Origin: Verrucomicrobiota bacterium
Lineage (GTDB): Bacteria > Verrucomicrobiota > Verrucomicrobiia > Limisphaerales > SXTU01
NCBI GenBank assembly: GCA_039796295.1
Contig: JBDKJY010000011.1
Coordinates: 93,157 to 157,156 of the forward strand
Reading direction: 5' to 3'
Length of the DNA: 64,000 bases
A program made the position numbers and the translations under genes. Numbering within the stretch: the first letter of the stretch is position 1; each line of letters starts with the position of its first letter. The notes below the pieces were generated by a model, which had not been told where the DNA came from, searched no databases, and was given only the letters and a program-made list of their open reading frames with translations. Of this stretch, positions 19,843 through 22,088 are shown piece after piece.

Positions 19843-19920
19843 GACGGAGGTAGCCGCCGAGGTCAGGAGGCGGAGTCGCGATGTCCAGCCGTCCGCCTCC
19901 TCACCCTGGCGGTTATGGGT

Positions 19921-20217
19921 TCAGCTTTCTAGCACGCCAATTTCCACCGGCTCGACCTTGATGCCGAGGCTCTCCAGCCAGTGGATGGCGTTCTTGATTT
20001 CCGAGCGTGCGCCGTCGAGTTCGAGGCAGACGATGCCGATGTCCTTGCCCACGCTGACCTGCCGCAGGTTGAAGACCACCTTGAACTTTTGGCCCAACTC
20101 CCAAATCACCGGGCGCGTGATGAGCGGGGCCGGGTAGGTGAGCCACAGCCGCGACATGGACTGGCGCGGGTCGGGCGGGAGCTTGGGCTCGGCTTTGGCC
20201 TTTTTCGTGGCAGGCAT
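19921..20217 (-). CDS. Stand-alone NIL (MetN C-terminal-like) domain protein
   Basis: 98 aa. RLWLTYPAPLITRPVIWELGQKFKVVFNLRQVSV..GIVCLELDG resembles the NIL ferredoxin-like fold pattern. Begins 16 nt downstream of the carrier-protein stop. Confidence 0.6.
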   Translation of the reverse strand: MPATKKAKAEPKLPPDPRQSMSRLWLTYPAPLITRPVIWELGQKFKVVFNLRQVSVGKDIGIVCLELDGARSEIKNAIHWLESLGIKVEPVEIGVLES

Positions 20218-20233
20218 ACGGCGCTACTTAAGT

Positions 20234-20509
20234 TTAGCCCCCCGCGATCGCCGGGATGATGCTGATTTCGTCGCCGTCCTTGAGGGGCGTGGCTTGGTTC
20301 TCGAGGAAGCGGATGTCCTCCTCGTTCACATATACGTTCACGAAGCGGCGGACTTCGCCCTTGTCGTCGAGCAGGCGGTCCTTGATGCCGGGAAACTTGC
20401 CCTGCAACTCGGCGATGGCCGCGCCGACGCTGGCGGCGGTGACGGTGACGACTTCCTCGCCGCCGGTGAGCTGGCGGAGCGGGGTGGGGATGCGGACTTT
20501 GGTGGGCAT
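20234..20509 (-). CDS. ThiS/MoaD-family sulfur-carrier protein ending in Gly-Gly (MetO-like)
   Basis: 91 aa from ATG 20509 (MPTKVRIPTPLRQLTGG...). C-terminus ..ISIIPAIAGG followed directly by TAA. The TTG at 20548 would extend into the repeat hairpin. Confidence 0.75.
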   Translation of the reverse strand: MPTKVRIPTPLRQLTGGEEVVTVTAASVGAAIAELQGKFPGIKDRLLDDKGEVRRFVNVYVNEEDIRFLENQATPLKDGDEISIIPAIAGG

Positions 20510-20525
20510 AGGTTGGATGTTGTTT

Positions 20526-20613
20526 AACGCAAAGACGCAAAGGCGCAAAGCCGTAAAGAAGGCCAGAGAAGCAAATCACTCTCTGCGTCTCTGCGCCTTT
20601 GCGTCTCTGCGTT
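20526..20613. repeat. Long hairpin with arms built from tandem 8-mers (CGCAAAGN)
   Basis: Arms 20526-20550 (AACGCAAAGACGCAAAGGCGCAAAG) and 20589-20613 pair 23/25. 38-nt loop. Lies in the 112-nt gap between the ThrC-like gene and the carrier gene. Confidence 0.85.
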
Positions 20614-20621
20614 GAAAAGAA

Positions 20622-21884
20622 TCATGCGGCTACCGGAGCCTTCTCCTCGTCCTTCAGCATCGCCTCGAACTCACGCAGGCTGGGCCGAATCTCGCGGGTT
20701 TGGCCCACATGGCCGGTCATCGCTTCGAGCGTCTTGAGGCCGTTGCCGGTGATGCAGAGGACGGCGGAGTCGGTCGCGGGAATCTTGCCAGAGGCGATGA
20801 GCTTCTTCGCCACGCCCACGGTCACGCCGCCAGCGGTTTCGGCGAAGATGCCTTCGCACTCGGCCAGCAGGCGGATGCCCTCGCGCACCTCGTCGTCGGT
20901 TACATCGTCGGCGTGGCCGCCGGTTTCTTTCATCACCTTGAGCGCGTAGAAGCCGTCGGCGGGCGTGCCGATGGCGAGGCTCTTGGCAATGGTGTTGGGC
21001 TTCACGGGCTTGAAGAAGTCCATGCCCGCCTTTTCGGCGGAGCTGATGGGGTTGCAGCCGGTGGCTTGCGCGCCGTGGATGTGCCACGCGCTGTCGGAGA
21101 TGAGGCCGAGCTTGGCGAACTCTTGGTAGCTTTTGTGAATCTTCGTGAGCAACGAGCCGCTGGCCATCGGCACCACGGTGTGCTGCGGCGTGCGCCAGCC
21201 AAGCTGCTCGCAAATCTCGAAGCCCATGCTCTTGCTGCCCTCGGCGTAGTAGGGGCGCATGTTCACGTTTACAAAGGCCCAGCCGAACTTGCCGGCAATC
21301 TCCGCGCACAGGCGGTTCACCTCGTCGTAGTGGCCCTTGATGCTGATGACGTTCGCGCCATAGACGAGCGAGTTGACGACCTTGCCGAGTTCGAGGTCGG
21401 ACGGGATGAAGACGTAGGACTTGAGGCCGGCGGCGGCGGCGTTCGCGGCGACGGAGTTGGCGAGGTTGCCGGTGGAGGCGCAGGCGACGGTCTTGAAGCC
21501 GAGCTCCTGCGAACGGCTGAGGGCCACGCTCACGACTCGGTCCTTGAAGGAAAGGGTCGGGTAGTTTACTGCGTCGTTCTTAATCCACAGCTCGCGGATA
21601 CCGAGGCACTTCGCCAGCCGGTCCGCCTTCACGAGCGGTGTGTAGCCGACCTGGCAACCGACGGTCGGCTCGCCCGCGATGGGCAGCAGCTCGCGGTAGC
21701 GCCACATGGTGCGGGGGCGCGACTCAATGGCGGCGCGGGTGAGGGATTGCTGGATGCGTTCGTAATCGTAAGCGACTTCGAGGGGGCCGAAATCAAACTC
21801 GCAGACGTGGGTGGCGCCCAGGGGGTATTCGCGACCGCACTCGCGGCACTTGAGTGCCTTCATGAAACCTTTGTGCTTGTCCAT
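20622..21884 (-). CDS. Threonine-synthase-family PLP enzyme (ThrC-like; candidate MetM-type homocysteine synthase)
   Basis: 420 aa. N-terminal zinc-ribbon-like CRECGREY..HVCE. PLP-lysine region NYPTLSFKDR. Family blocks ACASTGNLANS and CITGNGLK. Confidence 0.8.
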   Translation of the reverse strand: MDKHKGFMKALKCRECGREYPLGATHVCEFDFGPLEVAYDYERIQQSLTRAAIESRPRTMWRYRELLPIAGEPTVGCQVGYTPLVKADRLAKCLGIRELWIKNDAVNYPTLSFKDRVVSVALSRSQELGFKTVACASTGNLANSVAANAAAAGLKSYVFIPSDLELGKVVNSLVYGANVISIKGHYDEVNRLCAEIAGKFGWAFVNVNMRPYYAEGSKSMGFEICEQLGWRTPQHTVVPMASGSLLTKIHKSYQEFAKLGLISDSAWHIHGAQATGCNPISSAEKAGMDFFKPVKPNTIAKSLAIGTPADGFYALKVMKETGGHADDVTDDEVREGIRLLAECEGIFAETAGGVTVGVAKKLIASGKIPATDSAVLCITGNGLKTLEAMTGHVGQTREIRPSLREFEAMLKDEEKAPVAA

Positions 21885-21911
21885 AATTGCTTTCCCGCGT
21901 CCCGTTTTGGG

Positions 21912-21949
21912 GCAAACAAAAGCCCCGTCTCATCTGGATGAGAAGGGGC
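21912..21949 (-). terminator. Intrinsic terminator forming the riboswitch expression platform
   Basis: Minus-strand RNA GCCCCUUCUCAUC-CA-GAUGAGACGGGGC followed by UUUUGUUUG. Its 5' arm CUUCUCAUC is also complementary to the aptamer P1 3' strand GAUGAGAAG, giving the alternative antiterminator pairing. Confidence 0.75.
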
Positions 21950-21965
21950 CGGACAGGCTGACGCA

Positions 21966-22088
21966 CTTCTCATCTTTCCCCCGGCCTCGCGGTCGGAGCT
22001 GGAATTAGCACCTGGTCACTGCGGGACGCGCCGCAATCGGTTGCCGTGACGTCATCGGGCCAGTCCCTCAGTCACTCTGGATGAGTGT
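21966..22088 (-). promoter_or_regulatory. SAM-I (S-box) riboswitch aptamer
   Basis: Minus strand reads CUCAUCCAGAG..GAGGGACUGGCCCGAUGA..CGGCAACC..GGUGCUAAUUCCAGC..AGAUGAG. This matches the conserved S-box core segment by segment. Confidence 0.85.

Follow-up and report, generated by a model that had tools for sequence, protein, structure and literature searches.

The 64,000-nucleotide stretch of DNA that we analysed, hereafter the window (Verrucomicrobiota bacterium, SXTU01; assembly GCA_039796295.1, contig JBDKJY010000011.1, positions 93,157–157,156 of the forward strand), carries an operon in which an S-adenosylmethionine (SAM)-I riboswitch precedes the genes for a ThrC-family pyridoxal 5'-phosphate (PLP) enzyme, a ThiS/MoaD-family sulfur carrier and a small NIL-domain protein. 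Taken as a whole, the locus is probably best explained as an operon that SAM represses and that encodes the MetM/MetO thiocarboxylate route. By analogy with the published system, the ThrC-like enzyme and the carrier are very likely a MetM/MetO pair for homocysteine. We regard the operon as a further example of a pathway published in 2024 and the NIL partner as its undescribed part; the original prediction was accurate in setting NIL apart as an extra partner, and NIL alone takes the operon beyond what has been published. All coordinates are positions of the whole stretch, and all operon elements lie on the minus strand (Table 1).

MetM, a ThrC homologue, is a MetO-thiocarboxylate-dependent homocysteine synthase that works with MetO, Mec and MoeZ in Streptomyces albulus (Hasebe et al. 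2024, Appl Environ Microbiol 90:e01247-24, as cited in bioRxiv 10.1101/2024.10.14.618325 and PMC12172450). The original prediction had named this precedent, and the two citing works confirm that it is real. The S. albulus metM gene has an upstream SAM riboswitch (PMC12172450). The operon in the window resembles that system in having a SAM riboswitch, a ThrC-family PLP enzyme and then a ThiS-family carrier with a Gly-Gly end, as well as a MoeZ-type rhodanese E1 encoded elsewhere and a separate true ThrC. Unlike the S. albulus system, it belongs to a Verrucomicrobium, its carrier gene ends directly with GG-stop, no clear Mec/JAB gene was found in its genome, a conserved NIL gene follows the carrier, and a palindromic element resembling repetitive extragenic palindromes (REP) occupies the metM-metO spacer.

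Table 1. Features of the operon and its downstream region, listed in the direction of transcription
Feature	Positions	Strand	Evidence
SAM-I (S-box) riboswitch aptamer	21967–22087	−	RF00162, full model 1–108
Antiterminator pairing	21937–21974	−	GAUGAGAAG (21966–21974, P1 3' strand) with CUUCUCAUC (21937–21945, terminator 5' arm)
Intrinsic terminator	21913–21950	−	Hairpin 21922–21950 and U-tract 21913–21921
metM-like gene, ThrC-family PLP enzyme, 420 aa	20622–21884	−	PALP 223 bits; TIGR00260 273 bits
REP-like palindromic element in metM-metO spacer	20526–20613	−	22-nt inverted arms, −55 kcal/mol
metO-like gene, ThiS/MoaD-family sulfur carrier, 91 aa	20234–20509	−	ThiS 66.8 bits; NF041918 61.4 bits
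NIL-domain protein, 98 aa	19921–20217	−	PF09383 39.2 bits (cutoff 24)
GC-rich hairpin after NIL gene, without U-tract	19854–19912	−	RNAfold −41.9 kcal/mol
DUF309 gene, 155 aa	19375–19842	−	PF03745 69 bits; starts 78 nt past NIL stop

The SAM-I riboswitch and its expression platform

The S-box aptamer and the terminator/antiterminator logic, as well as the positions of the four genes from the ThrC-family gene to DUF309, were as originally described. The Rfam covariance model RF00162 scored 71.2 bits on the leader (E 1.2e-14), above its gathering score of 44.4. When the leader was folded, the minimum-free-energy structure consisted of P1 and a bulged, GC-rich terminator hairpin. A simple terminator scan missed this hairpin because of the bulge in its stem, and folding revealed it; the U-tract UUUUGUUUG follows directly after the hairpin. 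Read from the sequence, GAUGAGAAG and CUUCUCAUC are perfectly complementary over 9 nt, and their pairing competes with both P1 and the terminator. The predicted expression platform is a standard S-box OFF switch with terminator/antiterminator logic. At high SAM, the aptamer would be bound and P1 locked, so that the terminator would form and transcription would halt before metM. At low SAM, the terminator's 5' arm would instead be taken up by the 3' strand of P1, allowing transcription to continue into the operon. No methionine-rich leader open reading frame was found in the 83-nt leader between the aptamer and metM.

SAM riboswitches govern methionine/SAM genes. In an evenly drawn phylum sample of 301 genomes, from which 11 orthologue loci were fetched, a SAM-I riboswitch lies upstream of the orthologous enzyme gene in 8 of the 11 relatives; it also does so in Nonomuraea and at a locus (L127) where carrier and NIL are fused, both described below.

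The MetM-like enzyme forms a clade apart from threonine synthases

The MetM-like enzyme carries its PLP lysine, K114, inside an SFKDR motif, and its N-terminus contains a zinc-ribbon-like CxxC...HxC segment. Public databases name it threonine synthase throughout, and its 273 bits pass the TIGR00260 thrC cutoff of 167 bits. These assignments would suit an ordinary threonine synthase that stands behind a SAM riboswitch by chance, with unrelated small genes downstream. We consider this highly improbable, as the genome holds a separate ThrC, the enzyme-carrier pair is kept in all 11 relatives and in other phyla, and MetM is often misannotated as threonine synthase (GapMind 2026). The phylogeny also argues against it. 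We built a maximum-likelihood tree of 29 proteins in which the reference ThrCs came from hom-thrC-thrB operons of Brevibacillus, Priestia and Listeria. One clade, with 100/100 support and a long stem, held the window enzyme together with 14 Verrucomicrobial orthologues and a Nonomuraea protein; the operon-defined ThrCs and two further sets of long "threonine synthase" paralogues fell outside it. Matches to the enzyme in the 301 genomes were bimodal: 12 genomes, this one included, showed 62–100% identity, and the others about 35%. The proposal of a MetM/MetO-type operon is supported.

The Nonomuraea homologue was found by tblastn of plasmid-labelled records, in an 11.85-Mb record of Nonomuraea gerenzanensis, and is 53% identical to the window enzyme. 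Its locus has the order SAM-I riboswitch (68.7 bits), ThrC-like gene and 91-aa carrier ending AVAGG-stop; this carrier is 53% identical to that of the window, and no NIL gene follows it.

Residues 13–31 of the MetM-like protein (21800–21850, minus strand) read CxxC...HVCxxD. A fourth Cys, giving CxxC...CxxC, is present in Nonomuraea and in some Verrucomicrobial MetM orthologues; judged from these residues, the metal site may be altered in the clade of the window.

The carrier ends in Gly-Gly and is kept beside the enzyme

The MetO-like carrier has the C-terminus AIAGG-stop. Mec-type trimming is therefore not needed, since the gene already ends with GG-stop. The best-scoring models for the carrier were SAMP1 and archaeal MoaD, both of them generic. 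The carrier gene adjoins the enzyme gene in 11 of the 11 relatives fetched.

Protein-thiocarboxylate synthesis of amino acids is known from the CysO/CysM/Mec/MoeZ system of Mycobacterium tuberculosis. It also occurs in Wolinella succinogenes, with HcyS, HcyD, HcyF and MetY (Krishnamoorthy and Begley 2011, as cited in PMC5764234). The window operon resembles both in the expected use of a ThiS-like thiocarboxylate, activated by an E1, as the sulfide donor to a PLP enzyme. JAMM proteases act in those systems where the carrier has a C-terminal extension. The present system differs from them in that its PLP enzyme belongs to the ThrC family, not to MetY or CysM, and no MetY/B/C was found in the genome.

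We also weighed whether the pair makes another sulfur compound, for example cysteine from O-phosphoserine in the manner of CysM/CysO, rather than homocysteine. The generic best models of the carrier, and a second PALP gene of CysK/CysM size at L127, are compatible with such a product. It is nevertheless improbable: SAM riboswitches point to methionine metabolism, the enzyme is of the ThrC family, whose substrate is O-phosphohomoserine, and not of the CysM family, it clusters with the actinomycete homologue that shows the published MetM layout, and the genome has MetH and no other homocysteine route that we could find.

Genes for a probable homocysteine route in the host genome

We then searched the host genome, a draft assembly that is 95% complete, for the remaining parts of the route and for alternatives to it. 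Contig C9 encodes a further ThrC (233 bits to TIGR00260), which is of the long class II type, and BLASTP gave no meaningful similarity between it and the window enzyme. The window enzyme is accordingly neither the sole threonine synthase homologue of the genome nor a member of the canonical ThrC clade. As stated in the original prediction, the window holds no E1; all four ThiF-family matches of the genome are on other contigs. One of these, a 382-aa ThiF+rhodanese protein of MoeZ type on contig C3, scored 502 bits to NF005902 (MoeZ) and 546 bits to the MoeB model NF005646, in both cases under the strict equivalog cutoffs. By analogy with MoeZ, it is the candidate E1 for the MetO-like carrier.

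The genome encodes MetH (1462 bits). The MetY/MetB/MetC family had no match in the genome, and the same model matched in 14 of 14 control genomes. MetA and DUF39 likewise had no match, and the search for MetX returned only one sub-threshold match of 19.7 bits. The MetM/MetO pair is therefore the sole homocysteine route found, and reading the enzyme as MetM fills what would otherwise appear to be a methionine auxotrophy. The carrier might have been borrowed from a thiamine or molybdopterin context. This is not what the genome shows: it has its own MoaD, adjoining MoaE on contig C64, and a separate 70-aa ThiS on contig C48, which indicates that the window carrier is not borrowed from either pathway. 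No clear Mec/JAB protease gene was found in the genome, where the search returned sub-threshold Prok-JAB matches only.

From homology and this inventory, we infer the following chemistry. The MoeZ-type E1 would adenylate the MetO-like carrier, leading to its thiocarboxylate; the MetM-like enzyme would combine O-phosphohomoserine with MetO-COSH to give homocysteine; and MetH would methylate homocysteine to methionine.

Several points weigh against this assignment. Neither ThrB nor the alternative homoserine kinase ThrB-alt was found in the genome, and the source of O-phosphohomoserine for its two users, ThrC and the MetM-like enzyme, is a gap in the genome's inventory. A GHMP-kinase match on contig C16 was rejected as ThrB, being IspE. 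The only HomK candidate, an apgM-type protein (C13:157830–158969; L110:1453–2679), passes the cutoff for a phosphoglycerate mutase of the cofactor-independent type, with 524 bits. The presence of ThrC indicates that O-phosphohomoserine must be made somehow, and, as the draft is 95% complete, absent genes may be merely unassembled; this applies equally to the absent homocysteine enzymes. In addition, orthology was judged from the Nonomuraea protein, which has the published layout, and not from the S. albulus MetM sequence.

For its part, the locus contributes a GG-stop carrier for which no Mec gene was found, a genome whose searches turned up no other homocysteine route, and a metM-metO spacer with a REP-like insertion. 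The group concerned, the Limisphaerales/Pedosphaera-like Verrucomicrobiota, is widespread in freshwater and soil, and the annotation of MetM bears on metabolic models and cross-feeding predictions.

Conservation of the locus and of its NIL gene

NIL stands directly after the carrier in 8 of the 11 orthologue loci, and all nine NIL matches in the 301 genomes lie beside MetM/MetO. Of the 11 loci, one lacks NIL but has the riboswitch, and in another NIL is present and no riboswitch was detected. Two reduced Verrucomicrobial genomes of 0.9 Mb (L023/L024; G114/G090) have kept MetM-MetO at 67% identity, and neither a SAM riboswitch nor NIL was seen at these loci, which fits the riboswitch and NIL being regulatory extras.

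We extended the comparison with an NIL-alignment profile scan of 185,579 species genomes and considered the best 80 loci of at least 558 relatives; all 80 are from Verrucomicrobiota. Among these 80, the order MetM-MetO-NIL occurs in 67, MetO-NIL only in 4 and NIL alone in 9, two of the latter (L072, L108) being at a contig start with the upstream region missing. MetO thus adjoins NIL in 71 of the 80. Several public metagenome-assembled genome (MAG) records with the locus (L030, L033, L038, L043 and others) name Akkermansia muciniphila, Klebsiella pneumoniae, Proteobacteria or Bifidobacteriaceae in their titles, which looks like mislabelled taxonomy.

Other phyla were reached through an NIL profile search of 1.84 billion representative proteins and through a ThiS-NIL fusion used as query. 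The profile search gave 989 relatives, and the best 150, which we inspected, include ThiS-NIL fusions, JAB-NIL fusions (P0315 and P0336, with the Mec-like protease domain Prok-JAB) and tandem NIL-NIL proteins (P0257, P0255). One further protein (P0287) joins a PALP fragment, a ThiS tail and NIL and looks like a chimeric gene call. A single ThiS-NIL fusion as query returned at least 611 clusters; the sources named for such fusions are Sumerlaeota, Thermodesulfobacteriota/"Deltaproteobacteria", Limnocylindrales, Omnitrophica and Acidulodesulfobacterium. In the fusions, AIAGG is internal and a Lys/Arg-rich linker comes after it. On each of the three contigs inspected, a MetM-like gene immediately precedes the fusion gene. 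L127 also encodes ThiF, TusA, the second PALP gene mentioned above and JAB, in addition to its SAM-I riboswitch; the second contig encodes TusA and JAB, and the third has no accessory genes alongside.

The NIL protein resembles the methionine-binding domain of MetN

The NIL gene starts 16 nt past the metO stop and encodes the only NIL domain in the host genome. The protein consists of a variable, Lys-rich N-terminal tail and an ACT-like core of 80 aa. Alignment of its relatives showed invariant residues that include R23, W25, L26, P36, N50, R52, W80-L81-E82 and a V-E-P-x-E motif. No Cys is invariant, and C64 of the window protein is A, S or G in others; NIL was therefore rejected as a persulfide or sulfur relay, as its single Cys is not conserved.

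The NIL profile matched the C2 domain of E. coli MetN (E 3e-7), with N50 aligned to N295. In the MetN C2 dimer, N295 forms a hydrogen bond to L-methionine across the interface, and the N295A substitution removes detectable methionine binding (PMC6233128). An AlphaFold2 model of NIL (predicted local distance difference test score, pLDDT, 72.6) has a beta-alpha-beta-beta-alpha-beta fold that matches MetN C2 structures (3TUZ, 3DHX) and other ACT-type sensors, such as those of IlvN, aspartate kinase and prephenate dehydratase. NIL therefore shares with MetN C2 (PDB 3DHW, 3DHX, 3TUZ, 6CVL) its Pfam family, the ACT-like fold and the invariant equivalent of N295, and the tandem NIL-NIL proteins suit a function as a dimer. 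Unlike MetN C2, it is free-standing, with 80–100 aa, or fused to ThiS or JAB instead of being carried on an ATP-binding cassette (ABC) ATPase, and its conserved C-terminal motif, VEPVE, has no counterpart in MetN.

A link between NIL domains and an archaeal homocysteine pathway, raised in the original prediction, is documented for the DUF39 route (PMC5764234). The NIL-ferredoxin proteins MA1822 and DvMF_0262 of that route, from methanogens and Desulfovibrio, resemble the present case in that NIL is tied to non-canonical homocysteine synthesis (PMC5764234), and the Joint Genome Institute (JGI) labels some small NIL proteins "L-aspartate semialdehyde sulfurtransferase ferredoxin". The window protein differs in having neither a ferredoxin domain nor a conserved Cys, and no DUF39 was found in its genome. 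The expected substrate also differs, being O-phosphohomoserine and not aspartate semialdehyde. No NIL partner of MetM/MetO was described in the literature that we searched, a body of work outside which Hasebe et al. (2024) falls.

NIL as a possible sensor or structural partner of the carrier

Judging from its residues and fold, we tentatively read NIL as an ACT-like sensor that may bind methionine or homocysteine and be accessory at the carrier step. The reading is favoured by the linkage and fusion of NIL to the carrier and to the protease, by the retained Asn that aligns with the methionine-binding N295 of MetN, and by the recurrence of the domain on MetN and in the DUF39 system. The lack of a conserved Cys, the absence of NIL in actinomycetes and its loss together with the riboswitch in reduced genomes argue against a catalytic or sulfur-carrying role. 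NIL would act as a dimer, like the MetN C2 domain, and limit, at the protein level, how far the carrier is used. In its fuller form, which we likewise put forward as a possibility and not as a firm assignment, NIL would be a third component of the MetM/MetO pathway, a dimeric sensor that binds MetO or its maturation or activation enzymes and gives fast, protein-level feedback on sulfur delivery.

If so, this feedback would supplement the slower control by the SAM riboswitch, the MetO-NIL fusion of many phyla would need to be cut by a JAB protease, and NIL would be a general "methionine-status" module of three systems, namely MetN import, the DUF39 route and the thiocarboxylate route. The strict linkage of NIL to the carrier and the fusions of NIL with carrier and JAB suggest that protein-thiocarboxylate sulfur transfer includes an uncharacterised step of regulation or handling.

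The sensor reading also meets contrary evidence. The domain fusions suit a structural or pro-domain role of NIL as well as they suit a sensor, and the confidence of the AlphaFold2 model is only moderate. Moreover, the actinomycete MetM/MetO system works without NIL, and tblastn of NIL against the plasmid records, including the 11.85-Mb Nonomuraea record, found nothing.

NIL could instead be a structural partner of MetO, either an adaptor that offers the carrier up to the E1 or MetM, or a free-standing counterpart of the C-terminal pro-domain that a JAB protease would remove from the carrier in other lineages. With AIAGG internal to the ThiS-NIL fusions and a Lys/Arg-rich linker behind it, cleavage would be needed to free the Gly-Gly end; at two of the three inspected fusion loci, a JAB gene is a neighbour, and JAB-NIL fusions occur. 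The Lys-rich N-terminal tail of the window NIL resembles the fusion linkers, and MetO-NIL is the tightest gene pair in the 80 loci. We regard a structural role as the main rival of the sensor reading and as somewhat less likely. The Asn that binds methionine in MetN C2 is invariant in NIL, NIL domains elsewhere are found on proteins of methionine uptake and homocysteine synthesis, which suits ligand sensing, and the actinomycete and reduced-genome systems without NIL indicate that it is not an obligatory adaptor.

The spacer element, a third carrier-like gene and the downstream region

The metM-metO spacer is 112 nt long here and 22–66 nt in most relatives. The arms of its palindrome, AACGCAGAGACGCAAAGGCGCA and TGCGCCTTTGCGTCTTTGCGTT, measure 22 nt each, and similar arm pairs, 100–300 nt apart, occur at no fewer than 12 other sites in the genome (contigs C5, C7, C10, C27, C28, C46 and others). 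From its sequence, the palindrome looks like a dispersed element of the REP type, or of the miniature inverted-repeat transposable element (MITE) type, that was inserted within the operon. It is not part of the pathway; it could shift the expression of metM relative to metO and NIL.

A third CysO/MetO-like ThiS-family gene in the genome, of 105 aa, is on contig C17 (L013:1384–2817). The gene immediately after it encodes a 370-aa BNR/Asp-box repeat protein, which is not a usual companion of a sulfur carrier or ubiquitin-like protein.

The GC-rich hairpin after the NIL gene may mark the operon end, as a terminator without a U-tract, or may be an RNA-stability element. Beyond it, DUF309 was rejected as a part of the operon: among the best 80 NIL loci, only 18, all of the close clade (NIL at least 80% identical), have it as the next gene after NIL, and it is absent from the more distant 11 orthologue loci fetched from the 301-genome sample. 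A distant DUF309 match on the opposite strand was seen at one locus (L048). DUF309 is probably a lineage-local neighbour outside the MetM/MetO system. In one close relative (contig CALQJI020000003.1, about 55.1–63.3 kb; L033/L037), the complete MetM-MetO-NIL-DUF309 locus is accompanied, about 8 kb away on the opposite strand, by a second NIL-DUF309 pair that lacks MetM and MetO. This second pair may reflect a segmental duplication, a clade-level link between NIL and DUF309, or an assembly artefact of the MAG.

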